Shown here in pieces: positions 3,712-33,491 of a DNA stretch of 49,655 nucleotides (positions are counted from its first letter, which is position 1; every line of letters begins with the position of its first letter). The stretch spans positions 1-49,655 of the IMG/VR virus record IMGVR_UViG_3300045988_137874. One strand, given 5' to 3'. The notes beneath the pieces were generated by a model. The model saw only the letters and a program-made list of their open reading frames with translations. It was not told where the DNA came from and searched no databases. Made by a program: the position numbers and the translations under genes. This stretch comes from a virus.

Positions 3712-6700
3712 ATGAAGTTTTTAGAAGATTTTAATATCAAGAAATACGTGAAACCAAAAAAGAAGACCTCTAAACCACAGGGGTCTTCTTCTATTACTTA
3801 TACAAAACCTTTACCTAAAGGACCTATCCCAGTAAAGAAAGTAGTTCCAGATAAGATACCTACAAAACCTTTACCTACTACAAGCTCTAACAAAAGTTCT
3901 ATTGTAACAAAACCATTTTTTAATATTCCTATCCAGCCAGCACTACCTAGCCCAACAGCAATTAAGGCAAGACACAATGAGTTTGTAAAAGCTAACGCTA
4001 GAGCTAATAGAGCAATAAGTGATTTTAAATCTAATAACGTAATTGCTAATGCTACCTCTGGAATATTTAAAGGTGTAGAGTTTAATAAAAGAGTAGCACC
4101 TTTTATAGACACACGCCCTCAAGCAGTTAGAGATTTTAAAGTAAAGAACTATGCTTTCAGGAAGAATCCTATATTCAAATGGTACGAAAAGAAAGTACCC
4201 AACGTAGGAGAGCGTAGGTCTGGTACAGGAGCGTTTAGTAATAACAGTTATGTCAGAAACTTTACTACAGGACTATTTAAAGTATTAAGTTCTGATGCTG
4301 ACCCTAGAGGTATGCTCTCTGATCCTACTAGACGTAAGATACATGAAATGCAGAGAGCTAATCAAGCTAAAGCTCTACGTGCGTTTACTAAAGGTACTGG
4401 TGATTTAATAGCGGATACTATTATACGTCCATTCTATCAGAACGCATGGCAACAGGCAGAGCTTAAAGACAGGCTTAAACTACGTGAGCGTAAAATGAAT
4501 GAGCTCTATGGTTTAAATAGAAAGCAGCAAACATACTATGTAGAGGATGATAAGGGACGTGTATATGCTATTAAAGGTAGTAAAAATGGCGGTGACACTT
4601 ATAGTTATATTGATAGCAACGGAAAAGCGTTAAGTTTAGATATAACTGCACTGCCTAAAGATAGGGTAAACACATATAAGAGTATAGGGCTTATTCCTAG
4701 AGATAAAGTATTTCGTGTTAAAGATGGAGACCAGTTCCTCTCACAGCTACTAGACCCTAACTATAATTCAGGACTTCTTGCTAGAGACAGCAAGGGGCTC
4801 CCTTATATTTCTAATAAAGGGCTTAAACAGTATCTGGAGAATAACGGAGTAAGAAGTAATAGCACGTCTCTATTTGAAGCTATAAGCCCAAAACGTAGAG
4901 CAGATGATTTAATGATGCAGAGATATCTAGTTAAGTCTGCTGATGATTATGTTCAGAATAAATACTTTGGCGGTTATCCTCAAATGAGTACACGCTCTAT
5001 AGGAGCTAATCTTGCTATTAACTTTTTAGGACTAGGATTAAATATTATTAACAGACCGCAGCAAGGTGTGTCTGCTTATATCTTAGGTAAGAAAGAAGGA
5101 AAGACTGCGTCACAGATACGTAAAGATATGTATGCTGGATTTGTTGAGGGTAAGGATACATCCTTTACAGAATACTATCTTACTAAAAAAGATAAGCATC
5201 CTTACTTAAAAGGATTACTCTTTGATAGTATTTCAGACCCACTACTCTTTACTGACTTTATAGCTAAAGGTGGTGCAGGTGTAGCTAAAGGTATAACAAA
5301 GGCTTCTGTTAAATCCGAAATAACAGAGCGTAGTTTGCGTGAGGTTACAAGTAAGTATCTAGGAGGTGCTAGACTTCTTAATAAAAATGAAGGATTAACA
5401 TTTAAAGAAAGTCTACACAGTGTATTTGAAACACACAAACTAGGTACAGTTCATCAAACTAGAGGCGTTTATTCCAGAACCCTAGGTAGACTTAAAGGTG
5501 TGCAGATGACAGCTGATGCTTTAGATAATACTCTACCTAAAGCTCTACTGCCTAACCGTACTAAACGTCAGCTTATCAATACAATGGTTACTAATCCTAA
5601 ACAGGTAAATAAAAACTGGATTGCTAATGTACTACATGAAGCTGGATTTAGAAATAACCTTAAAGAAGATTTAGCAGATGCAATCTATGATAGCTACAGA
5701 ACTAGCAGACTTGTGACTAACACAGCTAGAGCTAATAAGATTGCAGACTCTACATCAGGAGCTTATAAGGTTTATAAGAAGTTTAAAGCCTTTGGAGAAG
5801 AAATAGACAGAGTAGATACTGCACTCACTAAAGCAGCGTTCCCAGTATTTACTGGAACTGTAAAAGGAACTAAAAAAGTAGTAAGAGCTATCAAGGCTTC
5901 TGAATTAAAGTCTTTTGTAGAAAAAGCAAAAGCACTTAAACAGATGCCTCTTTCTGATGTGTTTAAAAGTGATGAGCTTTTAGACCTAACTAAACGTAGA
6001 GCTGTTAAACAGGTAGATAAAGCAGTAGAGCCTTTAGCCAAAAACCACAAACTCTCTATGGAGCTACTTAATGAAGAAGCTGAAAAAGTTGTAGCAGCTA
6101 AAAGATATGGACAGTTTGGTAACACAGATAGTCTAGCTGACCTTATTACTGCTAGAGACAGTCAGCTCATAGATACTTTAGACAATATTCAGACCGCTGT
6201 TTCATCTAAAGAAAATGGTTATGGAACAGCTATGCGTATTATTAAAGATACTTATGATGACGCAGCAGATGTAACTTCTGTACATGAGTTTCTAGATAAC
6301 GCTCTACAATCTAATGATAACTTCCGTGAAGGACTTGTTTACGTAACTGACGACTCAGAGCGTAAAACTTTAAGTACACTCCTTAACGCTAGAGAAAATC
6401 AGATATATAAAACACAGCGTGTTTTAGATAATACTGAGGCTACAAAGCGTTTAAAGGATTTAGCACAGTTTACTAACATAGCTAAACAACAGGTACGCTC
6501 TGTAGAAAATTACACTGCTCTTGAAAAATATTTAGTTGAGAGCATAGAGCAAGCACACAACGCTACACATTATGTAGATACACATTTACAGGAGCTTGTT
6601 ACAAAACGTATAGATGAGGTTAAGGAACTACTACGTAGTGATGCTACAACTAAAGAGTTTAACCACACTATTAACCAGATTATAGGAGATGTTAAATCAA

Positions 6701-9700
6701 CCGCTAGTCAGCTCAAGACTCTAAAGAAAGAGTCTAAAGCTGTATCTATTAGTTCGTTCTTTTCTAAATTCAATAAAGTAAAAGAAGAGCTTGGAGCAAA
6801 GTCAGTTAAAGGTACGTTCTATAAAGATAATACTATAGAGCGGGTACTTAAAGATAAAGCTACAGCAAATGCATTTACTACTTTAACAGATATTTCTGAT
6901 GAGTATATAAGCGTTGTGTCTGGTTTAAAACAGTATTTACCTGAGTATCTGCATAGCGCTTTAGAAAGTGTTACGGATGTTAATGTAGATGATTTAGCAT
7001 TACAAACTGCAAAACGTAAAGCATTTCGCAGAGGAGAAGATATAGAAAAAGCAGTAAGCAGTGATATCAAATATATAGGACTCTCTGATTTCCCTAATGG
7101 AATTACAGACCTCATGCAGACTCTAGAAACGCAAGACTTTAAAAAGTTAAGCATACTATTAAACCTAGACGCCAATAGTAATATGGTTACTTTTGTAAAG
7201 CACCTAGATAGTTATATTGAGGAAAGCGTTTCTGAAGCTATAGATACACTACGCCTTATAGATTCTAAAACAGGGGCACCTCTAGCTAATTATCTAGCTG
7301 ACGTAGAGAGCACGCTGATTAAAACTAGAAATGCTGCAAAGTATGAGGACATTACTCTAGACCAGTTCACAACAGTAAGAGCTATTAAAGCTAATGCAGC
7401 ACAACTAGAAGCTACAGCACAAGACATCTATAAACAGAATAAGCATTTATTTAAAACGGGAGATTACTATTTAGAAAGAGTAGACCGCCTAATTAAATCT
7501 GAAATGCTTGATAATATTATAGAGTCTTACAGATTAGCTGATGATTATAAAACTGCCACAACTGTAGAGCAGTTAGCAACTTTTGCTGATGATATAGCTA
7601 AAAAGAAAAAAGCTAATGCACTGCTATCATCTTCATTAGAAGAAGCAGAATCTGCATTATCTCCAGAGCTATATAACATTTATCGTGATGCTTTATTTGA
7701 TGCACGTGATTTAGGACATAGTGCTATGGAGCACCCAGAATTTCTGGCTCCTGATTTTGTAGATCACGTTATAGAACAGCACTACTATCAGTATGCAAAA
7801 GCTAACTACAACATAGATAAAACCATAGGTGACTTGTACTCATTTAGTAAATCAGACCTGTCTAAAAAATATGATATAGACAAAGAGATACTAGATAGAT
7901 TATCTATAGGACATACTGCTGGTATAGACACGTACCGTTCTATCTTAACTAATATAGTACATGACCCTGAAAGTTTTGGTGATTTAATTGAACGTGCTAA
8001 AGCAGGCAGAGATGTATTTATATTTGATACAGAAACACTAGGTCTTAATACTAAACGAAATACTAACCATGTGTTCAGTATGGGTTTGTATAAATTAGAC
8101 CCAGAGCGTTGCAGTTTACTTAAATATGATAAGGAGCTAGAAAGATACACTAGCGAGAGTATCAATGAGTTTATGCGTGCTTTACTAAAAGATGCTGATT
8201 CTGGCAATGGATATAAAGAAATCTTAAATAAGATTCCTAATTACTTGATTGATAATGGGTGGCATCCGGATACGTCTTTCATGGATATTGCTACATTTAA
8301 AAAGATGTATGGTCATGAAGGCTATAGAATAGAAAATGATGTATTCGCTAATAACATTGTAAATACTATGCAGGAGATGCAGGGTACTCCCACATTAGAT
8401 TTACACAATGTTGTATTGTGCGGATTTAACAACCATGGATTTGATAATGTAGTTCTAGCTAATAACTGCCCAGAGATTGCAGCACTATTCAGAGATGTAC
8501 CGCAGAATATAGATATGCTAGTTAACATCAAAGCTAAACACGGTTTAATTATCTCGGATAAAGATAAGAATATAATAGGCAATCTATACAATAGTCTTTT
8601 ATCTGCACTGCATGATACAGATATAGAGAAGTTTAAGTATGCTTATCCAAGTAGACTTATAGATAGCTATGATAGATTTTATAGCACACTTCAGCGTTTA
8701 GGACACAGTGCTACAAGTCTTGACGTTGCTGTTGCACATGGAACAGATGGTACTCAGTATGCCTCTGCTTTAGATACTCTATTTAAAAACACGCCAGAGA
8801 GTATAGACCTTAATCTAGTTGCTAGTGAACTCCGAGAACAGAAGTTCCTACTGAAGTCTATTAACCATCTTAAAGATGATTCTCTAATTGTAGATCACGT
8901 CTTTAATCTGATTCCTAGTAACGAGCGTGCTTGGGAAACAGGTTATCTAGTTATGAAACTAGAGAATCCTAAACTAACTAGAGCAGAGTACGAAGCACTG
9001 TATAAATCTGGGGAACTTGCTAAATACGAAACTACAATTTCTAATTGGTTCCATATCCTAGACAGTAGCCCGGAGATTGATGTGCTTAAATTAACTCCAG
9101 AAGAGTTTATAGCTAAAGCAGATGAGCTTCGTGCAGCAGCAGATGTTATGACTGGTGGACAAACAAGTAACATCATCAGATGGATTAATGGTGTAGCTGA
9201 TGGAGGTTACTCCTATTTCCAAACACTAGCTGTACAGAATAAAGTAAATAAGAACATGCTAGACTGGTTTGGACATGTGATGAATAACTATCACGCTATA
9301 GAGACATACAGACAGCTTACTGCTAATATTCAAAATAATCTCAGACACAACGCTGATGATATATTTGATATAGACAACAGAATGTTACTAACAGGCATAG
9401 CATGGCGTGAGCTTAAAGATTATTGTATTGCACGTCCAGAACTCGCTAGTGCACTCTATATTTTTAATATAGATTTTGATGCACGCACAGTGAGTGAAAA
9501 GTTTGCAATTCTTGAAGAATTAATTATGGGTAAAAAGTACGGTATGCGTGAGACACTGTTTGGTACTTCTGACAGTGCAGTAAGGTTACTTCCGTCTGCA
9601 TACTTTGATTTTTCAGAACACACTGTAGACGTAATAAACTACATATTTAATACACGTAAACATAATAATTATTATCTCTTTGATAAAGAGATAGGTTTCT

Positions 9701-12700
9701 TTACTAGAAATGCAAAGGGAGCTGCGTATGAGATAGCTAGTGAATTAGAACGTGTTAAGTATGATACAGATGCTTTTGAGGAGTTTGCAGAAAGACTCTC
9801 TGGAATAACTGGAGGTGCTTCTGTAGAAAAACACACTATGGCTGTAGCACTACAACCTATTAATAATTTACGTAAGCAAATAGTAAGAATACTTAATAGT
9901 ACGGATGCAAAAAACACAATCACAAACCTTTACTATGATTTACAGCAAATAAAAAATGTTTGGGACGAAGTACATCACACTAGGGTTAAAGCTCTTGTAT
10001 CCGATATGCTTCAGAATGAAGACGCTATCTTAGAGCATCTAATCACGCCTGACTTTAACGGTATGATGTTCCTGCGTTTCTCTCCTGATGATGATAACAT
10101 CAAGCTAGTAGACCAGCTATTATCAGGAACACACCCTAACAGCAAATACCTACAAGTGCGTTATTTAGAAAAAGATGAGGTTGTCGCTGTAACTCTAAAT
10201 AATTTGTGTGACCTAGATGATAAAGCACTACATCTACTCGACACAGGAAAAACCATACAGCGAAATAACATAATAGGAAGGAGTATGCCTACTGAATTAC
10301 TTAATACATTTAAAAAGCAAATAGATAAGCTAGATACTCTAGCACCTGATTCTGTATTAAGACTTTACTATGAGTCATTACAGAATCTAGCAGCATATAG
10401 CAAACACAACTTTAGAGATTACACGCACGGGTTACTCAATGTAGAAAAGATAGACCAGTTACGTGAAGTCTTTGATGTAGTTAATATGATGGATTTAGAT
10501 AAGTTTGGTATGCAGACTATAGATGGATTCGTAAGTGCAGGTTCTTACTTAACACTAGAACCACCTAAGGCAGTTAATGGTGTTAAGTTCTATAACAATC
10601 CATTACTCACAGCCGAGACATTATTAAAACGTAATGCAGAGCAAGCTCTTGATAGTCACACTACTGTTGCTTACTTCTTACGTAATGAAGATCTTAACTC
10701 TTTAAATAAATTTGATTTATCTGATAAAGAGTGGTTTAGAGTATTAGACCAGCTAGAGGATTCCTTTGTTGTTTGTGCTATGGGTACAGACAACAAGAAT
10801 AAAAAGTATTTAAGTAAGTTAGAGTCACAAATTAAAGAAGCTAAAAAGGCTGATGACGTTAAGACACTAGAGAAGTTAGGTGAAGAGTATAGAGCTTATA
10901 ATCCAGTACAGCTTAAATCCTTTGAAATAAAATCTTCGAGGGATTTACAAAGAGCTAAAGAAGCTAATGCAGTTCTAGTCCCTAGAGTTGTGTATGAAAC
11001 ACTCTACGGACACGTGAATAACTTTACACCAACCAATCCTATACTGCGTGGTTACAACAGATATGTAACTATGATGAAAGCGTTTTATATCTCTACGCTA
11101 GGTACAGCCATGCGTAACTACATAGACGAAACCATCAAGACCTATATAGATGTAGGTTGGGAAGGTGTACCTATTGTGCATAGAGCTAGATTTCAGGCTA
11201 TGGCGGACCTATCTGATTATAATCAGATTATGGATGCTATTAAGAAAGACCTCAATACAGGACAACTTATTAAGGGTAAACTTAATTCAGCACAAGCTAG
11301 AGCACACCAGAGCCTAATACAAAAAGGTTTTGCAGATACACCATATTATTTTAATATCCCTGTATCTGATGCACAGAAGTATTATGGTTATTTAGCTGAA
11401 GCTGGAATACTACCTAAACACCTCACTGAACGTATGGATGCAAGTAACTTCTTACGTATGCACGCATTTATGCTAGAGGGTGCATCTGGTGGTACTCAGG
11501 CTGGAGAAATACAAGCACGTGCATTAGCACACTCTATCCCTGAACTAGAGGGTGTTGCTGCTAGAAACAAAGGTGTGTTTGGAACTCTAGGTGCTTTTCT
11601 GAAAATGCCTGATAAAGATTTAGACTCCTATGTATCCATGGGTAACTATCTCTTTAGTAAAGGTGTTTCAGCAGCACTAACTCCAATGGCTTATACAGAG
11701 CAGATTACAAGACTTACACATATGTACACTCTTGAGGAGCTAGGGATAGGTAAAATAGAAGCGTTCTCCAGAATATCTAAAACACATTTCAATTATGATG
11801 TTAAAGATAGAGCAGCAGTTTATGCACAGCTTCTGTTCCCATTCTTTAACTTTACTAAACTAAATATAGACTACTGGATGAACGCATGGACTAAAGACGC
11901 ACACTCTATTCATAACCTACTCAGGCTAAACCAGCAGAACCTTAAAGAGGCTCTGGATGATAACTATGAGCGTACAAGAAATGGACAGTGGGTTGATATG
12001 TCTTATCTTAATCATGCTATGGCAGGTAACCCTAGGATACCTAACCCAGCACAGAATGAGGGACAGGCTGCGTGGTTAAAGTTAAATCCATCATTCTATG
12101 ATGCGTATAACTTCCTACTCGATCCTATGAATCAAGGTATGCAGGATATATTCAGTCCAATTCAGAATGTACTCCAGGATAGACACTTCTTTGATGGTGC
12201 TATTAAAGCAGGTATCTTTAACCAAGGTTATGGTGGAAATGGCTTAATGGATTTCTTACCGCTGATAGGTTCTACTATATTACCAATGCATGAGAATAAA
12301 CTCAGGTATATAGATAAAACCTTTACAGAGTATAGAAACGATACTTTCGCCCAGCTATTAAAATCACCCGGCTCATTTGCACAGCTTCCTACAATCCTTG
12401 CTTTTTCAAAGATAGACTTTGGAGAGGATTATGAGAAGTTTAATAAGTTCTTAAATGCTAATGGTTATGCTTACGATTTCTACACTCGTCAGATAAAACC
12501 AATTAAGGACTGTGTGGCTAGAGATAGTAAAGAGTTATCTATGTATATGTACAAAAAGTATGGGTTAGTATATGACTTCATTACTAAAACATTTGTACCA
12601 GCGTATCTATCCAAGGACCCTGTGACTCGAAATGTAAGTTTTAAAACACCGCATAGTCAAGCACAGTGGTCTGATATACAAGCACTTGCTAAACTCTATC

Positions 12701-23858: not shown

Positions 23859-24328
23859 TCTTTTTCTTCCTTTGTAAGTTCAACTGTACTCTGTAGTTTT
23901 CTTAATTGTGCATCTAGCTCTGTTGCAGTTGGTGCGTGCTTCTGTGCGGATGTTAATGGTACATAGCAGTAAATAAACGCAGGTCCTTTGTCATTGTCTG
24001 TGTCTGACTCGATTTTCTGAAGTGCATTAATGAGTTGTGACTGTGCTACTGACCTAGAGTCACTAGAGTTTGCAACCATTTTGATTAGTGCAGAGTCTTT
24101 TAGTATCTGCATTTCAGAACTTCTGTATTTAATTACATCAGGTTCCTTTAGAAATGCTGACCAGTATTCTGAAGTTAAATACTTTAAATCAGTTAGGCTT
24201 GGATTTATTTCGTCACATAGTTCTGCAAGCTCGTATTGGTTTGCACCTATTGCTGTTTCTCCTAGACTCTTAAAAATCTCCCAGAGTCTTTCTTTCTGTG
24301 TTTTATTCAGTCGGACTGTTGTACTCAT
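23825..24328 (-). CDS. hypothetical protein (167 aa)
   Basis: ORF overlapping both neighbours in an operon-like arrangement. No recognisable motif. Confidence 0.5.
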   Translation of the reverse strand: MSTTVRLNKTQKERLWEIFKSLGETAIGANQYELAELCDEINPSLTDLKYLTSEYWSAFLKEPDVIKYRSSEMQILKDSALIKMVANSSDSRSVAQSQLINALQKIESDTDNDKGPAFIYCYVPLTSAQKHAPTATELDAQLRKLQSTVELTKEEKEWVKKQELPEY

Positions 24329-24779
24329 TTAATACTAATACCTCCTTTAAATCTATAATAGTCTCTATTAATATAATCATTGTTCTATGGTCTTTTGCAG
24401 TTAGGTTGTATATCCAATGTGGTGGAAGTACTTCTGCTCTAGGTCTGTGCTCACCGTCTCCTAGGTGATGCTTAACACTAGAATAAGACACGCCTAAAAT
24501 TTTAGCAATTTGATAAGGTGAGTAGTTCAGATTAGTTAGCATCAATACCCAGTATCCTTTTGCTATTTTCTTTGGGGCATGTCTTATTGCTTTCATTACT
24601 AATGATTTAATTTGTGCTGTATAGAGGTCTTCTTTAGCTAGATTTGCTATAGTGAATAGGAACTCTAGTAATCTTTGTATGTCAAAGCCAGCTCTATTTG
24701 AAAACATAAAGCAAATTTGTAAAAATTGTGCTTCTGCATATAGCATGTAATTTAGTTCTTCATACTTTGATTTATACAT
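24303..24779 (-). CDS. helix-turn-helix protein, sigma-70 region-4/LuxR-like (putative phage transcription factor)
   Basis: The C-terminal segment LNYSPYQIAKILGVSYSSVKHHL is a classical HTH. It is the first gene after a long structured leader, with an AAGGA RBS. Confidence 0.5.
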   Translation of the reverse strand: MYKSKYEELNYMLYAEAQFLQICFMFSNRAGFDIQRLLEFLFTIANLAKEDLYTAQIKSLVMKAIRHAPKKIAKGYWVLMLTNLNYSPYQIAKILGVSYSSVKHHLGDGEHRPRAEVLPPHWIYNLTAKDHRTMIILIETIIDLKEVLVLNEYNSPTE

Positions 24780-24807
24780 ATTATGTTCCTTTTATTACTT
24801 TACTGTT

Positions 24808-24882
24808 ATATAGCAGGGCGTGCAAGTGGATCTTTCCGGCTAGTGGGGTGCCTGGAAAGATCCCTTCGCATGAGCGCTATAT
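24808..24882 (-). promoter_or_regulatory. long imperfect stem-loop in the leader of the HTH gene (or an independent small RNA)
   Basis: The outer stem is ATATAGC/GCTATAT (24808-14 / 24876-82). The inner perfect 10-bp stem is GGATCTTTCC/GGAAAGATCC (24828-37 / 24854-63) with a 16-nt loop. Additional TGC/GCA and AAG/CTT pairs lie between them. Confidence 0.45.
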
Positions 24883-24903
24883 TTAGTGAGTGTATCACTT
24901 TGT

Positions 24904-24931
24904 GTTACATTAGCGAAACGCATAATGCTTA
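24904..24931. repeat. left copy of a 28-bp direct repeat bracketing the RT module (GTTACATTAGC-N5-GCATAATGCTTA)
   Basis: 25 of 28 positions are identical to 26521-26548. Both copies are intergenic and lie upstream of minus-strand transcription units. Confidence 0.8.
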
Positions 24932-24949
24932 ACTTAGTAGTCAAAATGG

Positions 24950-25105
24950 CTAAAGTAATATAGCATAAAGTTTTCATAAAAAAAATAGATACTCAAGAGT
25001 GTGTATACATGTGACTAATTTTAGAGAGAATTTATGATGAACATGTTTTGAGTAATTCGTTAGAAATATCTAAAGTAATAACGTAAAAGTTTTGAGTATC
25101 TATTT
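24950..25105 (-). repeat. structured non-coding segment downstream of the RT: 14-bp perfect inverted repeat plus about 25-bp direct repeats
   Basis: The inverted repeat is AAATAGATACTCAA (24983-24996) / TTGAGTATCTATTT (25092-25105). The direct repeats are CTAAAGTAATA..AAAGTTTT at 24950-24974 and 25070-25093. No ORF with an RBS is present. Confidence 0.6.
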
Positions 25106-25112
25106 CGTATTT

Positions 25113-25172
25113 AAAAACAGTAAGTGCTCTCTTATTTGTGTTTATGTGTCTTTTGTTTATAAGCACCTACTG
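25113..25172 (-). terminator. candidate terminator after the RT gene (11-bp stem, large loop, T5 on the minus strand)
   Basis: CAGTAAGTGCT (25118-28) pairs with AGCACCTACTG (25162-72) with one mismatch. The A5 run at 25113-17 gives a T5 tail on the minus-strand RNA. The large loop makes it atypical. Confidence 0.4.
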
Positions 25173-25184
25173 TTCTTAACAAAG

Positions 25185-26304
25185 TTAGTATAGCATATTT
25201 TTCATATACTGCTCTACGTTGGTTTTATATTTTACAGTATATTTATGTAATATGTAATTTGTGTAATCAGGGTCTACAGCCTTTGCGTAAGCTATGTTCC
25301 CCTGTAGTTCCTGTATTTCGGGTACAGTCCATGTCTTCTTTTCAACTATGTTTTCATAACAGAATCTATTTATCTTTGCGTTTAGGATTTTATTGTTTTT
25401 ATGTCCTAATGTAATTCTGTTATCTTTGTTCAGCATGAGTCCTACATTCCAGTTTCTTCCTGCGTTAGACCCGTATCTTGTTTTCTTATTGTTGATTTTA
25501 AATGGAGCATTAAAGTTATTTAGAATGTTTTCTATTTCTTTAATAACGTCTGTCCACTTAAAACTCTTACCTGCACTAATGATAATATCATCAGCGTATC
25601 TTGTGTATGTGAAGAATGTTCCATACTTCTTACCTAGTTCTACGCATAAGTTTGTTATGTCATAGTCTATAGGTACCATGCAAAGATTTGTAAGTGCTGG
25701 ACTAACAGGCGTACCCTGTGGGAGTTTATCGTTTAGGAGGCAAATGTCTAGCATTTTAGAGATGACAGCTCTATCATTTTTGATAAGTGCTCCTATAGGG
25801 TAAACCTGCTCCAGCATGTTTAAGATATATTCTTTGTTGTGTGCTGGGAAGAAGTTGCTAAAGTCTATTTTCAAGAACCATTTAGCTTGCATGTTTTGAT
25901 GTTTCTTTAAACTTTCTATATGGCTTCTTCCTTTGACGTATGCATAAGCAGCGTCATGTGGTAGTATATGCAATTCGTCTTGTAACCAATACGCAAGTGT
26001 TGACTGTATAGTTTTGAGTTCCTGTATTGGGGCATCAATCTCACGCAGTCCTCCAGACTTCTTTGGAATTTTGAACGAAGAGTATAGCTGTAAATTAGAT
26101 TTACTTAAAGACTCCCAACTATTTAAGATGTAGTCTCTAAATCGTGTAGCGTCCTCTGTTAGTGTAAAGTTAGTAGTATCTGGTAGCTCTACTGTTGTAT
26201 ACTCTCGTAGTTTCGTTTTTTCTGGTATAGGTTCGTTTAGAAGTATTTTTCTTAATGTTACTTTTGGGTAGTTTATTTTTTTCTCTGTGAATTGTGTAAT
26301 ACAT
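25185..26304 (-). CDS. reverse transcriptase, retron/Abi-like (non-DGR, no maturase or endonuclease domain); needs a +1 shift in an A7 tract
   Basis: RT motifs read in one frame: FKIPKKSGGLREIDAP (1-2), WFLKIDFSNFF (A/3), LPQGTPVSPALTNL (4), YTRYADDIIIS (YADD, 5), FKINNKKT (6) and RNWNVGLML (retron VTG-like, 7). This frame is open over 26318-25185, but its first canonical start is the TTG at 25973, which lies after motifs 1-2. The ATG at 26304 with a GGAGG RBS is in the frame one nucleotide off. Confidence 0.85.
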
Positions 26305-26520
26305 TTTTGTTTCCTCCATTACTGTGATAGTTTGAGCTCTTTGTCTGTAGCTGCTGACAGGGCGTCGCACTGGACTCGTTTGGTTTGTGCACCTTGGAGT
26401 TTTAATCTTTTGCTGGTTTATCCTGCATTTGGATTATTTGCATCCTTCTGTAGCGTCAGGTTCCTGAGTAATTTTTTCTTTTCTACGTCATCCAGCTCTT
26501 CCGTTTTTCTCTGACAATGC
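26305..26520 (-). ncRNA. candidate structured leader/ncRNA upstream of the RT
   Basis: About 215 nt with no RBS-preceded ORF, lying between the 28-bp repeat and the RT start. It is more GC-rich than other intergenic DNA. It contains an 8-nt direct repeat GCTACAGA (26447-54 and 26344-51 on the plus strand as TCTGTAGC) and several short hairpins. No secure fold could be derived by eye. Confidence 0.3.
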
Positions 26521-26548
26521 GTTACATTAGCTAATAGCATAATGCTTA
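26521..26548. repeat. right copy of the 28-bp direct repeat bracketing the RT module
   Basis: GTTACATTAGC-TAATA-GCATAATGCTTA, compared with GTTACATTAGC-GAAAC-GCATAATGCTTA at 24904-24931. The copies are 1617 bp apart. Confidence 0.8.
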
Positions 26549-26595
26549 TATTTTTTATTAAGAGTATAAAATAACTAATGGATAATATTTTGATT

Positions 26596-27267
26596 TTAGA
26601 ACGAGTCTAAAAACATGTCAAATACGTTAATTGTTGCAAACTTTTTTTGTGCGCCTGTGTTTATATAGTTTATAAAGTTGGCTACCTGCAAGCTCGCTAA
26701 CACGTGCACCGTAGGGGACACTGATAACGACATCCCACAAGCACTTGTTGGTGTTTCAGCTTTTGCTTCTTCATGACTAAAACACATAGAAGCTAGTAAG
26801 CGTTCTTGGTCTTCCTTATTCTTCCAATCCGCAGCTAAAACAGTACCATCTTCCAAACCGAGCCTAATGTCAAAGATTGCTTTTATCTGTTTGTTCTTTG
26901 TAGCTACAGTTGTTATGTCTCTTCTTGTGTCAATGTTATCTACTGCTAGAAAAACATAACCAGCTAGTCTATCTGCTGGTGTGCAACGTTCTTTCTTTGT
27001 GATTCTGCAAGAGTCATTTATTTTAAGTAATCTTGCTTCAAGTGCGTCTGTTTTTAGCATACCTACTTCTGTGTTATCGTAGAGCTGATTTACTACATTG
27101 TGAGACTCAATTGTGTCAAAATCCCATAGTGTAATCTTGTCTATTCCAGAGCGTACTAGCATATCAGCTAGAAATGAACCTGTTGCTCCACAGCCTACAA
27201 TATGTACTTCTGTTTTGCCTAGTTTCTTTGGGTCAAAGTAGTCCTTACTTTTGTTTAGGTTAATCAT
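26596..27267 (-). CDS. ThiF/MoeB/E1-like adenylyltransferase (short, 223 aa)
   Basis: Rossmann motif HIVGCGATGS, then WDFDTIESHNVVNQ (DxD..N..Q), GMLKTDALEARLLKIN, FLAVDNIDTRRDI and a C-terminal SACGMSLSVSPTVHVLASLQVANFI. This is the canonical E1 adenylation-domain motif order. Its ATG overlaps the JAB stop. Confidence 0.85.
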   Translation of the reverse strand: MINLNKSKDYFDPKKLGKTEVHIVGCGATGSFLADMLVRSGIDKITLWDFDTIESHNVVNQLYDNTEVGMLKTDALEARLLKINDSCRITKKERCTPADRLAGYVFLAVDNIDTRRDITTVATKNKQIKAIFDIRLGLEDGTVLAADWKNKEDQERLLASMCFSHEEAKAETPTSACGMSLSVSPTVHVLASLQVANFINYINTGAQKKFATINVFDMFLDSF

Positions 27268-27986
27268 TATTTGTTTCTCCTTCCATAGTAGAAATTACGT
27301 TCATCACCTATAGGATATCCTGCGTCACCGTAGTAATAATCTTCCAGAATGTCATCATCCATTTCTAATAGTGCTGTCGTGTCTTTCCAATTGTTCTTGT
27401 TCTTATTCTTATTCTTATTGTTCTTGTTATAAGTATAAACTGTTGGCTTATACTCTGTGACTTTTTCTTTTGTTTCTCTAATAGCCCACTCTGTTTCTTT
27501 GTTAGCAACTGGGATTATCTGAATATCCTTTGTTTCATACTGTAAGCCAGTTACTGTGTCATAAATGGTGCACCAGATTTCTCTTTTCTTATTTACAATT
27601 AAGAATATGTAGAAGTCACCCTCTTGTAGCTGTGCTAAATGGTCTTCTTGTAATTTGGTGTCTGTAGCACTAGGTGATGTTCCCATAGTTACGTGGGAGT
27701 GTCCGTGTATACGTAGTTTATCGAATACGTTTGAGTTAAGGTCAAGTCTATAACCGTCTAGCCATTCTGCAAACTTAGCTTCGTCTGCTACTATAGATGT
27801 TGCATCTACAGCCTGTGGGTATACTAGAATATCAGTTATTATGAAAGTGTTATCTTTTCTTTCTACTGTTCCGTGCCAGCCAATTTCTTTTGTGTTGTAA
27901 TCTACTAGAGCCCACATTTTGTTATAGGCTGTTTCTGTAAATGTTACAACTGGCTGTACATAATCTTTTTTAAGAATCGGTTTCAT
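27267..27986 (-). CDS. JAB/MPN (JAMM) metalloprotease
   Basis: A complete JAMM signature is present: upstream Glu (KEIGWHG), then HGHSHVTMGTSPSATD, which is HxHx7SxxD. The start is chosen at MKPILKK (27986) because the track start at 28040 overlaps the upstream gene by 71 nt. The C-terminus has a (NK)n low-complexity tract. Confidence 0.85.
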   Translation of the reverse strand: MKPILKKDYVQPVVTFTETAYNKMWALVDYNTKEIGWHGTVERKDNTFIITDILVYPQAVDATSIVADEAKFAEWLDGYRLDLNSNVFDKLRIHGHSHVTMGTSPSATDTKLQEDHLAQLQEGDFYIFLIVNKKREIWCTIYDTVTGLQYETKDIQIIPVANKETEWAIRETKEKVTEYKPTVYTYNKNNKNKNKNKNNWKDTTALLEMDDDILEDYYYGDAGYPIGDERNFYYGRRNK

Positions 27987-29577
27987 TTGTTTCTCTCTCT
28001 GTTTCATACTCTCTACAAAAATCAATATCTTCCCAATCAAAAGTAGGTCCGTCCCATTCTTTATAGTAATCTGTCTGTATAAAGTCTTTTATGATTTGGC
28101 GTAATACACTTCTTGTATATACTCTCTTTTTTTCTACAGTGTCATATAGACCGGATTCTGCATTATTTAGACAATACTTTACGAGTGCCCTTACTACATA
28201 ATCATCAGTTAGATTTATCTGTGTCATAGCATAATTAACTTGTGTTACTGCACCTTCTAAATCATTGTTATCTAGGAACTCTTTGATTGCATATTCGTGA
28301 GAGCCCCAACAATCAAATCTCATTAAGTGGGGGTGGTATAGGTTTTTTGTTTCTGGATTTAGGCGTGTTACTGCTGTGTCTTCTCCTATGTGTGCGTTTA
28401 TAGTCTTTGTTCTATAATTTAAGTCACACTCAGTATACACAGGTACTTCATATTTTTTCTGTATAAAGCACGCCCATAGTAAAGCTAGTTTTGGTAGAGG
28501 CTCTGTATTAAACTCTTCTAGCATTATATCTATTTTGTCAGGATCCCATTCAGTTAAGTGTGTTGCTCCTGCTATATGTACTTTTTGTTCTAGCGTATCA
28601 ACGTCTACTGTTAGATGTGAAAGATATTTACCTGCATAGCTTAATAGATTTTTGACCATCTCTTTTTGTGTTACTATAAGACTGTAATCAGGTCCTTCTT
28701 CTTTAAGTGTTAGTAATCTATCTTTAACTTCAATTATTTTATTTTGATAGTTGGTTATGTCCTCCTGTTTGTCCTTTATACGGTTTGTGTAATCTCTTAT
28801 TGTTGCGTTTGTAGCGAATAATTCTTTTTCATAACTCTTTATTACATCTTCTAGTTCCTTTTGTTTATTGTACCACGTATTAACACAGCGTTCTTTTAGT
28901 GCAAACTCTTCACTTGCACACTTCTCTTTAATACTTGCTATGGTTTTGTTTATATCATTTGTGGTGTGTAATTCTGCGAAGATACTATATGGGTTTGTTC
29001 TTATTTCTTTTGGTAGTCTGCTATAGAAATACATTAGTATCTCTAATACTGCATACTTATTTTTTGCAAAAGAATCTATAGGTGTATCCATAAAGCAGAG
29101 TGTCATTTTGGTACCATTTGGTGTTTTGTATGTTACTGCATATGTTTCTGTGCTATATAGTGTGTGTAAGAGCTGCGTGAGTGTATTATCTATTTCCCAA
29201 TCATTACTATTTGGAATTAATGCTCTTATTCGTTTTATCTGTTCTATGTCTTGTACGCTTGCACATGAAAGGTGTATCTGACTTCTATGTCTATTTGGAT
29301 TTGTGAGCGTGTGTTCTATCATTTGTATAAAATTTGTTGCTGTATTTTTATCTATTAGGATTACATCTAGACTTTTATAACTAAGTAGCGATACGCAGTT
29401 AGTTATAAATGTACGTAATTCTGTAATGTGCTCTATGTTTGGTGTTACGTTGTCTACATAAACTGGAGCATATGAGCTAGGGTTAGGTAGCATTCTGTTT
29501 AATCTTGGAAGTAAATCAAAGATGAACTCTTGATTTTCGCTATTCACATACTCCTTAAAGTTTTTATATTTTGTCAT
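27970..29577 (-). CDS. 535-aa protein with central coiled coil and C-terminal E2(UBC)-like HPH..C motif (putative E2-like conjugating enzyme or adaptor)
   Basis: The C-terminal segment NLYHPHLMRFDCWGSHEY resembles the UBC HPN-x(6-8)-Cys active-site loop. Its position between the Ubl and JAB/E1 genes fits bacterial Ubl operons. The N-terminal 400 aa are unrecognisable. Confidence 0.35.
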   Translation of the reverse strand: MTKYKNFKEYVNSENQEFIFDLLPRLNRMLPNPSSYAPVYVDNVTPNIEHITELRTFITNCVSLLSYKSLDVILIDKNTATNFIQMIEHTLTNPNRHRSQIHLSCASVQDIEQIKRIRALIPNSNDWEIDNTLTQLLHTLYSTETYAVTYKTPNGTKMTLCFMDTPIDSFAKNKYAVLEILMYFYSRLPKEIRTNPYSIFAELHTTNDINKTIASIKEKCASEEFALKERCVNTWYNKQKELEDVIKSYEKELFATNATIRDYTNRIKDKQEDITNYQNKIIEVKDRLLTLKEEGPDYSLIVTQKEMVKNLLSYAGKYLSHLTVDVDTLEQKVHIAGATHLTEWDPDKIDIMLEEFNTEPLPKLALLWACFIQKKYEVPVYTECDLNYRTKTINAHIGEDTAVTRLNPETKNLYHPHLMRFDCWGSHEYAIKEFLDNNDLEGAVTQVNYAMTQINLTDDYVVRALVKYCLNNAESGLYDTVEKKRVYTRSVLRQIIKDFIQTDYYKEWDGPTFDWEDIDFCREYETERETNETDS

Positions 29578-29591
29578 GTTTATATCCTCCT

Positions 29592-29620
29592 AAAAAAAAA
29601 TAGGGGAATGTATCCCCTAT
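29592..29620 (-). terminator. rho-independent terminator between the Ubl gene and the E2-like gene
   Basis: The 8-bp stem ATAGGGGA/TCCCCTAT (29600-07 / 29613-20) has a 5-nt loop. The A9 run at 29592-29600 gives a T9 tail on the minus-strand RNA. Confidence 0.8.
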
Positions 29621-29622
29621 TT

Positions 29623-29859
29623 CTAAAAGTTTCCGTCAGACTTAACTGTCTTTGTTAGTCTGTATTCATCAGCTTCACCTGCAAGATTTAGGATTGTTTC
29701 ATCTAGTTTGTGTTCTGGAACTGCTACTCCGTTTAGGAATGGTAGTCCAACCTCAGGCTGCATACCGTTGTCTAGAAAAGCCTGTCTTACTGTAAGTTCA
29801 CCTGGCTCAATTATTACGCTCTTTCTGTTGTGATTATCTGCTATTAGCATGTTTTTCAT
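29623..29859 (-). CDS. small beta-grasp (ThiS/MoaD/ubiquitin-like) protein candidate, 78 aa
   Basis: Size and pattern (..IIEPGELTVRQAFLDNGM....FLNGVAVPEHKLDETIL..) resemble ThiS/MoaD-type Ubls. The C-terminus is ...KSDGNF, a single Gly 2 residues from the end that JAB trimming could expose. It has a strong AGGAGA RBS. Confidence 0.45.
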   Translation of the reverse strand: MKNMLIADNHNRKSVIIEPGELTVRQAFLDNGMQPEVGLPFLNGVAVPEHKLDETILNLAGEADEYRLTKTVKSDGNF

Positions 29860-29888
29860 GATTTTATCTCCTTATCTTTTCTTTTCAT

Positions 29889-29918
29889 TAAAAAGCTGAA
29901 GAGGCTTTAAGCCTCTTC
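29889..29918 (-). terminator. rho-independent terminator overlapping the stop of the 142-aa gene
   Basis: The 8-bp stem GAAGAGGC/GCCTCTTC (29898-905 / 29911-18) is followed by a T5 run on the minus strand. Confidence 0.7.
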
Positions 29919-30335
29919 GTTTGTTGTTGGTACTGCGTCTGCGGTAACTTCTGCTGTGTCTTCAAACATCTCCAGAGTAGCGTTCACTGCAGCGTCATAC
30001 TTAACAATTGCTTCACCGAACTTAGTTAGTACAGCGTCTAGTTTAGGTAGCATAGGTGCGATAGCTTTTGCCATCTTCTCTTTGCTTACTGGCAGGTCAA
30101 ACGCAATTGTAATGTCTGTACCGTCTTTGCGTGTAGCAATTGTCACTCCGTGTACAATGTCACGTGCTGCGTTGTAGTAGTTACCATCTACAACATTTAC
30201 ACGGAATGTTTCATTTCCGTCTTCGTCCTTCAGTACGGTTGCTTCTCTGTTGTTTCTTGCAACTTCCAGTATGTGCTCTGGATCATACTTTTTTAGTTCA
30301 ATAACTGCTAGGTGCTTTAGTGTTCTAATCTTCAT
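29907..30335 (-). CDS. hypothetical protein (142 aa), monocistronic unit
   Basis: It has an AGGAGG RBS, its own upstream hairpin-motif site and its own terminator. No recognisable motif. Confidence 0.6.
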   Translation of the reverse strand: MKIRTLKHLAVIELKKYDPEHILEVARNNREATVLKDEDGNETFRVNVVDGNYYNAARDIVHGVTIATRKDGTDITIAFDLPVSKEKMAKAIAPMLPKLDAVLTKFGEAIVKYDAAVNATLEMFEDTAEVTADAVPTTNEEA

Positions 30336-30374: not shown

Positions 30375-30442
30375 GTGAGGTAAGTGTTAGTTAAGTTACC
30401 TATTGTTATTTTGTGCGTCTTACCTCACGCTCCCCGTATGGG
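30375..30442 (-). promoter_or_regulatory. hairpin-motif site C (CCCATACGGGGAGCGTGAGGTAAG on the minus strand) plus a 10-bp leader stem GTGAGGTAAG/CTTACCTCAC
   Basis: The motif lies at 30419-30442, about 95 nt upstream of the ATG at 30335. Its 3' part pairs with 30375-30384. Confidence 0.4.
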
Positions 30443-31008: not shown

Positions 31009-31440
31009 TTAAACTCCTGTGTGTCCGAAGCCTTTATTGCCTCTAGTGGTTTCTGATAGTTCATATACAATATTTGGTGTAATGCGTGTATACTCCGTCA
31101 CTACCATCTGTGCAATACGGTCTCCGTCTTTAATCTGCATTACATGTTCACTCTGATTAATCAGAGGTACGTGTAACTCGCCTCTGTAGTCTGAGTCAAT
31201 AGTACCTACGCCACTTATAAGCGTAATTCCGAACTTTGATGCCAGTCCTGAACGAGCTCTAATCTGTGCCTCATAGCCTTCAGGTAGTTCAATAAACACG
31301 CCTGTTGGAATAAGCATCCTCTGCCGTGGCAAGAGCGTTATAGGTTCTTCTAATCTAGCTTTTAAGTCCATGCCTGCAGCTCCTTCTGTGGCATATTCAG
31401 GTGTGTACTTCGTGTCAGTTACTTTCATATTAATTTTCAT
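31009..31440 (-). CDS. dut: dUTP diphosphatase (trimeric dUTPase)
   Basis: All five dUTPase motifs are present: AAGMDL, RSGLA, GTIDSDYRGE, GDRIAQ and RGNKGFGHTG. Confidence 0.95.
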   Translation of the reverse strand: MKINMKVTDTKYTPEYATEGAAGMDLKARLEEPITLLPRQRMLIPTGVFIELPEGYEAQIRARSGLASKFGITLISGVGTIDSDYRGELHVPLINQSEHVMQIKDGDRIAQMVVTEYTRITPNIVYELSETTRGNKGFGHTGV

Positions 31441-32556: not shown

Positions 32557-32600
32557 GATATACCTCCTAATTATATTATTGTTGTTTATGGCTGTGATAA

Positions 32601-32619
32601 CTTATACGTCCCGTAGGGG
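32601..32619 (-). promoter_or_regulatory. hairpin-motif site A (CCCCTACGGGACGTATAAG on the minus strand)
   Basis: It lies about 45-65 nt upstream of the ATG at 32556. GTCCC/GGGAC can form a 5-bp stem with a 4-nt CTAC loop. Confidence 0.4.
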
Positions 32620-32683
32620 ACTAAAATAATAAAAGAAATAAAATATTATATACTAGGTAATAATTATATTTGTAAACCTGATT

Positions 32684-32705
32684 GTTTACACATGCTCCGT
32701 AGGGG
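32684..32705 (-). promoter_or_regulatory. hairpin-motif site B (CCCCTACGGAGCATGTGTAAAC on the minus strand)
   Basis: It has the same core and orientation as site A and lies about 85 nt further upstream. Confidence 0.3.
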
Positions 32706-32862
32706 ATTTTATTGATTAAAATATAAAAATGATTAAAATTTTAGGTCTAGAAATTGTGCTCAATTTAATTGTATGTTTTTGCGTTTTCGCTAAATCGTGT
32801 GAAAACTGTGTGAAGATTTGTTTACGAATAATATGACTTTTTCAACCTGATTTGGGCTGACC

Positions 32863-32883
32863 CCCCTACAGGGGCTGTATAAG
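32863..32883 (+). promoter_or_regulatory. hairpin-motif site D (CCCCTACAGGGGCTGTATAAG), on the opposite strand to the other copies
   Basis: It is nearly identical to site A but reads rightward on the plus strand, into the 600-nt non-coding stretch 32.9-33.5 kb. Confidence 0.35.
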
Positions 32884-32894
32884 ATTTTAAAATG

Positions 32895-32916
32895 AGTGTA
32901 GCATATATAGTACACT
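32895..32916. promoter_or_regulatory. 22-bp palindromic operator-like site O1 (AGTGTAGCATATATAGTACACT)
   Basis: The AGTGTA/TACACT arms are perfect. The whole approximately 35-bp context (TAAAATGAGTGTAGCA...) recurs at 33096-33128. Confidence 0.5.
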
Positions 32917-33025
32917 AATTCACTGTTTCTACACAAAACCCATTTTATGTGATATTTAATATCATCTATTCTTCACATAATCTTCACACATTGACTCCTC
33001 GTATCTTTATAATATATAGTAGGAA

Positions 33026-33073
33026 GGTGTATATATATATCATTATATATATATTTTATGATATATATACACC
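33026..33073. repeat. AT-rich near-perfect palindrome (GGTGTATATATATATCAT ... ATGATATATATACACC), origin-like
   Basis: The arms at 33026-33043 and 33058-33073 are complementary apart from one extra AT. They are separated by a pure A/T spacer and flanked by O1/O2 and promoter-like elements. Confidence 0.6.
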
Positions 33074-33102
33074 TGGGGGTAGGTGATTATTTTGGTAAAA
33101 TT

Positions 33103-33124
33103 AGTGTAGCAAATATGTTACACT
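33103..33124. promoter_or_regulatory. 22-bp palindromic operator-like site O2 (AGTGTAGCAAATATGTTACACT)
   Basis: It has the same half-sites as O1 and lies 208 bp away, on the other side of the AT-rich palindrome. Confidence 0.5.
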
Positions 33125-33491
33125 GATTTTTTTTTTGATGAGTAAGGGTGTGGGGGGGGTACCCCTGTGAGCACGAAGCTCTCAACCAATTTTTAATATT
33201 TTAAAACTCACAGGTACATTTCGTCTAGCAGTGAGTTAGAGATACATAACAACATACGCCACAGTGGGTGAGTTTACAATAAAAGTTACTTTAGCCCACA
33301 CGGGGAGTCTGAGGGGTGAGCATCGGTCAGTTAGAGTGTGTATGGCTCTAGGTGCTTAGTACTTAATCTGTCGGGTGCTATAGCTCGTGGGGAGGTGGTG
33401 GGACGTTAACCTATCTCGTGCTATGGGAGATACAGCGATACATACAATCTTCTTCTATTGAATACACACACACACTAGAGGAACGTAGAGC

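Follow-up and report, generated by a model that had tools for sequence, protein, structure and literature searches.

The DNA analysed here is IMG/VR virus record IMGVR_UViG_3300045988_137874, a phage contig of 49.6 kb, referred to in its full length of 49,655 nt as the window. At positions 24793–30335 it carries a cassette that combines genes for conjugation of a ubiquitin-like protein (Ubl) with a retron-type reverse transcriptase (RT). From approximately 35.5 kb down to 13.9 kb every gene of the window lies on the minus strand, and all features of the cassette are read from that strand. The cassette comprises two small proteins that are probably abundant, the 142-aa g142 that forms its first gene (29907–30335) and the 78-aa Ubl (29623–29859); three enzyme genes, encoding an E2-like protein of 535 aa (27970–29577), a JAB/JAMM metalloprotease (27267–28040) and a ThiF-type E1 of 223 aa (26596–27267); and the RT (25185–26304), flanked by two msr-msd-like RNA genes (26315–26582 and 24793–24960). 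The locus is bordered on one side by a helix-turn-helix (HTH)-like protein of 158 aa (HTH158, 24303–24779) and a replication arm with a YqaJ exonuclease, a family-A polymerase (PolA), a primase-MCM helicase, DUF669, AAA_24 and an SNF2 helicase, and on the other side by a dUTPase (31009–31440). An earlier note on this DNA had likewise placed the RT, the Ubl cassette and the 142-aa gene between the HTH/SNF2 and dUTPase blocks, and these positions are borne out.

IMG/VR was scanned with the SNF2 protein of the window, which yielded 12 related contigs with identities from 99% to 39%. Synteny was read by tblastn and annotation with hidden Markov models (HMMs), after joining contigs that were cut at the cassette site. 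The genes g142-Ubl-E2-like-JAB-E1 were found at the same site in all 12 relatives, down to 39% SNF2 identity, and the RT at the same site in 11 of 12. Because the cassette is present in every relative at the same position, its description as an accessory, variable island, given in the earlier note, fails. The patchy presence among close relatives expected of a moron was not observed, and only the sub-module of RT plus RNA is ever missing. This part is absent from 4 of the 21 loci with an SNF2 backbone (L006/L019, L046, L075 and L086), where E1 abuts the HTH gene.

A wider set of approximately 120 loci was assembled from the E1 alignment, consisting of 80 of 133 viral loci and 41 contigs binned into metagenome-assembled genomes (MAGs) from gut and rumen; gene presence was scored with HMMs built from the relatives. 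The order g142-Ubl-E2-like-JAB-E1-RT is found nearly everywhere in these E1-centred loci, with JAB next to E1 in 105/106, the E2-like gene in 104/106, g142 upstream of Ubl in 102/106, Ubl in 100/106 and the RT in 99/107. Only 21 of 101 loci have the SNF2 backbone and the remainder are mostly contigs of 66–125 kb; the cassette thus recurs on unrelated phage backbones in approximately 80% of the E1-centred loci. The linkage also holds in reverse. The RT alignment matched more than 554 viral stretches, and among the best 80 of these, E1 was located upstream on the same strand in all 68 loci with enough upstream sequence. Given linkage in both directions (99/107 and 68/68) and the fusion of Ubl with g142 in some phages (see below), the RT, the Ubl cassette and g142, which the earlier note had treated as separate, are one unit whose parts have been co-inherited in hundreds of phages.

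The scan of bacterial genomes returned MAG-binned contigs only, many of them phage-sized (95–125 kb), and the E1 matches included no cultured-isolate bacterial genome, one single-cell assembly contig aside. The loci are phage and MAG-binned contigs, and no bacterial chromosomal defence locus in the style of BilABCD with CapH/CapP was found among them, although their flanks were not inspected. Searching the GenBank phages with the DNA of the window gave no match; the closest E1 protein in these phages is 39.5% identical and belongs to an unannotated faecal phage. The two MAG-binned contigs with the SNF2 backbone (L111 and L130) were binned with Bacteroidales/Bacteroidia, and MAG contigs with other backbones mostly with Clostridia, a weak hint about the hosts.

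Compared with two of the relatives, L002 and L005, the proteins flanking the cassette are 94–99% identical (in L002, 94.5% for g109, 97% for HTH158 and 98% for SNF2), whereas identities within the cassette are 73–76% for g142, 69–71% for Ubl, 31–32% for the E2-like protein, 57% for JAB, 68–69% for the RT and 90–91% for E1, the least diverged of the cassette proteins. At the DNA level, the 94% identity with both genomes ends exactly at position 24784; RT and E1-JAB align at 75–77%, and the E2-like DNA is unalignable. Both edges of the island are real evolutionary breakpoints. As the cassette proteins are far more diverged than the flanks and the DNA identity breaks at 24784, the cassette exists as strongly divergent alleles in near-identical genomes, with alleles swapped wholesale. 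The block diverges as a unit between nearly identical flanks, and much faster than they do, as would be expected from a conflict locus. The proposal of a moron-type modular island in the earlier note is thus upheld with respect to sharp boundaries and to evolution faster than that of the flanks, but not with respect to patchiness in relatives.

A profile of the Ubl family searched against PDB gave ubiquilin and ubiquitin UBL domains as top matches, with full-length alignment and E-values of only 0.03–1.6. The Ubl of the window ends in ...KSDG-NF, such that processing would expose Gly76, and the C-terminal motif of the family is K-[ASG]-[DN]-[GN]-[AG]-x. For g142, no match was found in Pfam, PHROG, NCBIfam or PDB. 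In approximately 10 phages, Ubl and g142 are encoded in one open reading frame (ORF), with Ubl as the N-terminal part and the junction ...VVKADNA(A)|(K)IKIAG (L027, 7015–7623; L037, 4945–5565; L093, 6173–6775; and L041, L053, L070, L088, L095, L119 and L127). The g142-Ubl pair is present twice in L109 and L112. Since g142 is fused to Ubl in these phages, it belongs to the system, and we infer that it is a partner protein of Ubl and the best candidate for its partner or substrate. Neither a promoter nor a T-run terminator was found that would set g142 apart as monocistronic, as the earlier note had it.

The JAB protein contains an exact JAMM motif, HSH-x7-S-x2-D (consensus H-x-H-x7-S-x2-D), and weak HMM matches to PADLOC JAB and Pfam Prok-JAB (3e-4 and 0.03). 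Its true start is probably an internal ATG, and it is predicted to be the enzyme that processes and deconjugates Ubl. The E1 matches Pfam ThiF at 1.8e-28, with invariant GxGxxG, Asp/Arg/Asn-Gln motifs and Cys177.

The E2-like protein begins with a variable domain, continues as a long coiled coil and ends in a conserved domain that carries the motif HPH-x5-C423-x-G. An exhaustive HMMER search grouped the family into 104 clusters, all of 435–600 aa, with a conserved core at residues 360–480 and the invariant residues P416, H417, C423, G425, D458 and V461. An AlphaFold2 model built with 60 sequences had a predicted local distance difference test (pLDDT) score of 77.7, and above 90 in the C-terminal domain; with 5 close sequences the score was 40. 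The order of elements in the model is a helix, two strands, two inserted helices, two strands, the HPH loop, the Cys and three helices, which resembles the order of the ubiquitin-conjugating (UBC) fold. Foldseek comparison with PDB and BFVD returned uncharacterised phage proteins only, and a profile search of PDB returned coiled coils only. The E2 identity of the 535-aa protein is unproven, and it is called E2-like on the basis of motif, order of elements in the model and gene context.

The RT is frameshifted as assembled. The ORF program reported only a TTG-started fragment of 262 aa, beyond which the frame remains open over 115 more codons that include no start codon, and a Shine-Dalgarno sequence with an ATG is located at 26304, one base out of the RT frame. 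The window has a run of seven A residues at 26276–26282, where four relatives with one continuous ORF (370 aa when intact) have six. As the relatives have A6 and an intact ORF, a programmed +1 frameshift was rejected, and the seventh A is either an assembly error or an inactivating mutation. With one A removed, the protein of 372 aa matches NCBIfam retron_St85_RT (9.3e-61, 205.6 bits, below the cut-off of 235 bits), and the top 25 RT matches in PADLOC are all retron RTs, the best being RT_II-A (8e-46). By eye, SLKKH takes the place of the NAXXH motif of region X, with the His kept, and NVG that of the VTG motif of region Y, with the Gly kept; this His and Gly are the two most conserved residues of the two regions (Mestre et al., 2020). 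The protein also has an N-terminal extension of approximately 60 aa. A diversity-generating retroelement was considered and rejected, since the RT belongs with retron RTs and no long, imperfect repeats that could serve as a template/variable pair were found near it. No other retron effector gene adjoins the RT.

A 28-bp repeat, described in the earlier note as a candidate promoter, is present in two copies (26521–26547 and 24904–24930) that flank the RT. Each copy is a bulged 8-bp hairpin (hairpin B) followed by GTAAC, and the same hairpin shape with a different sequence flanks the RT in distant relatives. In an alignment of 15 seeds, 98.3% of cells were paired and 7 of the 8 pairs had changed on both sides, compared with 32–45% in slid controls, and none of 500 shuffles reached the observed score. 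Among 98 distinct sequences, 99.1% of cells were paired, with many U-G pairs that would be mismatches on the opposite strand. An ad hoc hairpin detector was equally noisy on the reverse and forward strands and was replaced by a covariance model. This model found two sites only in the window, with 50.9 bits upstream and 44.6 bits downstream of the RT. In the 80 viral loci it found 117 sites, up to five per locus, all on the gene strand, 115 of them downstream of E1 and none inside the RT ORF; the four complete loci without RT had none. The repeat is thus a covarying RNA stem-loop tied to the RT. On the plus strand at 3712–13887, the window has an ORF of 3391 aa, a size as in virion RNA polymerases of N4-like and crAss-like phages. 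Given this ORF, we considered whether a virion RNA polymerase might use the repeat as a hairpin promoter of N4 type. This was rejected, as the genome has two copies only, both beside the RT, the U-G pairs restrict the element to one strand, and it is absent where the RT is absent and present on unrelated backbones.

Around hairpin B, a long-range closing stem was identified, with the 5' arm ending 8–45 nt upstream of the hairpin and the 3' arm 100–400 nt downstream. Stems scoring at least 10 were found for 53 of 115 units and for 15 of 115 reversed controls (Wilcoxon p = 1.4e-8). The stems have 72 different arm sequences, and a G directly follows the 5' arm in 63 of 84. As far as can be read from the sequence, this layout is the a2-G...a1 of a retron msr-msd.

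The downstream unit (24793–24960; covariance model match 44.6 bits at 24891–24932; fold z-score −6.17) has a 5' arm, TATTACTTTA, at 24951–24960, followed by G at 24950, hairpins A and B, a long msd-like hairpin at 24809–24882 and a 3' arm, TAAAGTAATA, at 24793–24802. Its closing stem is a perfect 10 bp, which was also recovered in a constrained search, and its minimum free energy fold has retron architecture, with three small hairpins and the long hairpin. The upstream unit (26315–26582) is the weaker of the two, despite its model match of 50.9 bits, and consists of a 5' arm TCCATTA (26576–26582), G at 26575, hairpin A, hairpin B with GTAAC (26508–26549) and a 3' arm TAATGGA (26315–26321). The long stem-loop of msd type is present in the downstream unit and not in the upstream unit, and 155 nt of the interior of the upstream unit are deleted in L005. 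A retron RNA located solely upstream of the RT was rejected, since the upstream gap folds no better than shuffles and the well-formed unit lies downstream. In L002 (8870–9085) and L005 (8845–9079), the downstream unit has an insert of approximately 200 nt with about 55% G+C, compared with 36–38% in the surrounding genome. Classical retrons have a single RNA; L102 (10735–13419), L038 and L063 (12408–12712 and 19822) carry tandem arrays with up to five RNA units per RT gene, mostly downstream of the RT.

Between the Ubl gene and the E2-like gene, a hairpin that resembles an intrinsic terminator (29592–29622; 10-bp stem and T9) is present, and a second terminator-like hairpin with a T-run (29889–29918) overlaps the stop codon of g142. 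Both are conserved in close relatives, and L006 has a different hairpin in the gap between Ubl and the E2-like gene, a gap with a median length of 93.5 nt across loci. In a strict search, a hairpin with a T-run followed Ubl in 48 of 92 loci and in 6 of 9 fused forms, with unrelated stem sequences; elsewhere it was found in 21 of 92 loci after g142, in 1 of 110 between E2-like and JAB and in 8 of 112 between JAB and E1. The E2-like, JAB and E1 genes overlap or abut. The terminator between Ubl and the enzyme genes, already noticed in the earlier note, therefore recurs in at least half of the loci, and these statistics support the prediction that Ubl, and g142 too, would be made in excess over the enzymes.

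Of the three terminators listed in that note, these two (29592–29620 and 29889–29918 there) are real, and the third (25113–25172) is a conserved hairpin but not a canonical terminator. This hairpin (25111–25179), directly after the RT stop codon, has 19 bp and an A-rich loop of 31 nt and shows compensatory changes; a terminator scan does not call it. It is followed by a long-range stem of 15–27 nt around approximately 95 nt and then T8 (24970–25118), a structure that is conserved in L002 and L005 through compensatory changes. Upstream of g142, a conserved long-range hairpin at 30375–30428 resembles in form the one that follows the RT. Its stem of 10 bp, in which L002, L005 and L006 show compensatory changes, encloses a loop of 34 nt with conserved sequence, and a small hairpin adjoins it at 30429–30441. 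A single strong sigma-70-like site was identified, TTGACA-17-TAAAAT at 26621–26593, by its 11/12 consensus match only; transcription from it would start just 5' of the upstream retron RNA. For two further candidate promoters of the earlier note, hairpin sites C and F, no position could be identified.

The RT and its RNAs resemble retrons in several respects: the best RT matches are retron RTs (closest to the St85/Sen2-type and type II-A models), the RNA has a long-range closing stem followed by G, stem-loops and a long hairpin, and immediately 5' of the RT there is an RNA preceded by a promoter-like site. They differ in an RT that falls below the St85 cut-off, carries the N-terminal extension and keeps NAXXH/VTG in part; in the number and placement of the RNA units, of which the window has two, one lying downstream of the RT, and relatives as many as five; and in the Ubl-conjugation neighbours and the carriage by apparently lytic phage genomes. 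None of the 13 retron types described previously is associated with ubiquitin, ThiF or JAB genes (Mestre et al., 2020).

The Ubl genes are arranged in the order Ubl-E2-DUB(JAB)-E1, the same as in the bacterial ISG15-like system bilABCD (PMC10557695). In both systems a JAMM protease is predicted to pre-process a Ubl with extra C-terminal residues; in BilABCD, the JAB enzyme BilC removes the one additional C-terminal residue from BilA (PMC10557695). No E3 is present, as in BilABCD and also in Cap2/Cap3 of the cyclic oligonucleotide-based antiphage signalling system (CBASS), so the E2 would choose the targets. Unlike BilABCD, the cassette is phage-encoded, has the extra partner g142 and a retron, lacks the regulators CapH/CapP, and encodes a Ubl whose tail is usually ...DNA, a single-domain E1 in place of the IAD-AAD-CYS arrangement and, as its 'E2', a coiled-coil protein of 435–600 aa with no detectable similarity to known E2s. 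A phage-encoded pair of Ubl and JAB peptidase is known from the tail-assembly proteins I (Ubl) and K (JAB/NlpC) of lambda and T1 (Iyer et al., 2006), but these belong to a tail module without E1, E2 or RT, whereas the cassette lies in the replication arm. The short Ubl tail and the head-to-tail fusion with g142 may also be compared with eukaryotic ubiquitin fusion precursors (ubiquitin-ribosomal protein fusions and polyubiquitin), in which a protease frees the C-terminus; for Ubl-g142 this cleavage is a prediction and the likeness an inferred one. In the literature searched (full text), no description of a cassette combining an RT with Ubl conjugation was found.

Taken together, positions 24793–30335 are one conserved and fast-evolving phage cassette that joins a Bil-ordered Ubl system to a retron-type RT with its RNAs, and we consider it probable that the two serve together in conflict. 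JAB would trim the Ubl tail (NF in the window) or cut the natural Ubl-g142 fusions, after which E1 would adenylate the exposed C-terminus and pass Ubl to the E2-like protein as a thioester on Cys423. Ubl would then be attached to a target, which the E2-like protein may select through its variable part, made up of the N-terminal domain and the coiled coil. The RT would copy part of its RNAs into multicopy single-stranded DNA (msDNA), priming from the 2'-OH of the G that comes after the closing stem. In the way that msDNA acts on the effectors of other retrons, the RNA-DNA product may then sense, scaffold or gate tagging by the Ubl machinery. The system most likely acts early or in the middle of infection, against rival phages or the defences of the host; such a role in conflict is consistent with hypervariable alleles and with an RT that is occasionally lost. 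More tentatively, and with slightly less confidence than doubt, we suggest that the cassette could represent a new phage-borne retron type with a Ubl-conjugation effector, in which msDNA from arrays of one to five RNA genes gates or directs tagging and phages turn the system on their competitors or on the defences of the host. At its most extreme, this reading would have the msDNA itself covalently joined to the Asn- or Gly-ending Ubl by the MccB-like E1.

Several observations weigh against this reading of a Ubl system with a retron in conflict. The E2-like protein has no sequence match in Pfam, PADLOC, PHROGs, NCBIfam or PDB and no Foldseek match in PDB at E<0.001, and an hhalign comparison with three eukaryotic E2 sequences paired only HPH with HPN (0.8% probability). 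The E1 is a single ThiF domain without the inactive adenylation and Cys domains of BilD, and the usual tail of the Ubl family is ...KADNA, not Gly-Gly. Of NAXXH and VTG, the RT retains only the His and the Gly, and its frameshift in the window means that the retron half may be inactive here or that the assembly may have one A too many. In the upstream RNA unit, the closing stem measures only 7 bp and the fold is not significant (z-score −0.68), neither unit has a match in Rfam at the gathering score or at E<=10, and the stem-loop model has no match in 24 of 72 RT-bearing loci. The Ubl module is retained without the RT in 4 of 21 loci of the same backbone; because these loci keep the Ubl genes and the RT of the window is frameshifted, the coupling between RT and Ubl is not obligatory. 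Finally, near-universal conservation would suit a core function equally well.

This conservation makes a core role in the life cycle a serious rival, in which msDNA or RT-made primers would serve replication, or Ubl tagging would serve the assembly of virion or replisome. Every relative has the cassette, at a fixed position in the replication arm and on the same strand; in most relatives, E1 identity to the window broadly declines as SNF2 identity does; and the cassette is found on more than 550 phage contigs and in no isolate bacterial genome. Nevertheless, we judge such a role unlikely, as an E2-like protein of 31% identity in genomes with 94% DNA identity, together with the wholesale exchange of alleles, is a pattern typical of arms-race genes, and the RT has been lost in four lineages and is frameshifted in the window while the rest of the genome is intact. 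The recurrence of the same cassette on unrelated backbones also argues against a core module. Against the possibility that the retron and the Ubl operon are independent systems side by side in a shared hotspot, the reciprocal linkage holds across backbones with order and strand fixed, the whole block diverges as one unit, and beside the RT there is no other retron effector gene. Independence would account for the RT having its own sigma-70-like promoter after the E1 stop codon, for the RT-less variants that keep the Ubl genes and for the 1–7 kb found between E1 and RT in several loci, but we regard it as distinctly improbable. The view of the earlier note, a patchwork of three unrelated and dispensable morons with their own promoters and terminators, draws on internal hairpin terminators that are real, sharp island boundaries and a GC content slightly below that of the flanks. 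It appears highly improbable given the universal presence in relatives, the Ubl-g142 fusions that tie two of its genes together, the proposed promoter repeat that is an RNA element tied to the RT, and the lack of a detectable promoter for g142.

Retrons and bacterial Ubl conjugation have so far been studied apart, both as defences of the host. Here, the two occur as a linked pair in the genomes of hundreds of uncultured phages from gut and rumen, with a reciprocal linkage above 90%, which raises the questions whether retron msDNA can control a protein-modification cascade and whether phages use ubiquitin-like tagging offensively. The loci provide a large E2-like family, a minimal E1 of 223 aa and multi-copy arrays of retron RNA, and the allelic hypervariability of the E2-like protein probably marks where target specificity lies. 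The compact new pairs of retron RT and RNA are of interest for genome-editing tools.

Outside the cassette, bases 1–55 of the window are repeated at 49601–49655, and on account of this 55-nt terminal duplication the contig is circular. Collagen-like GXY repeats with a 9-nt periodicity are found at 1–132 and 49439–49655, in a gene that spans the contig ends. Beyond the dUTPase, the gene strand lacks any ORF over 935 nt (32557–33491). This stretch includes paired repeats (CCGTAGGGGA..., at 32611 and 32697) as well as hairpins of terminator type on either strand, and it may be a regulatory region or an origin.

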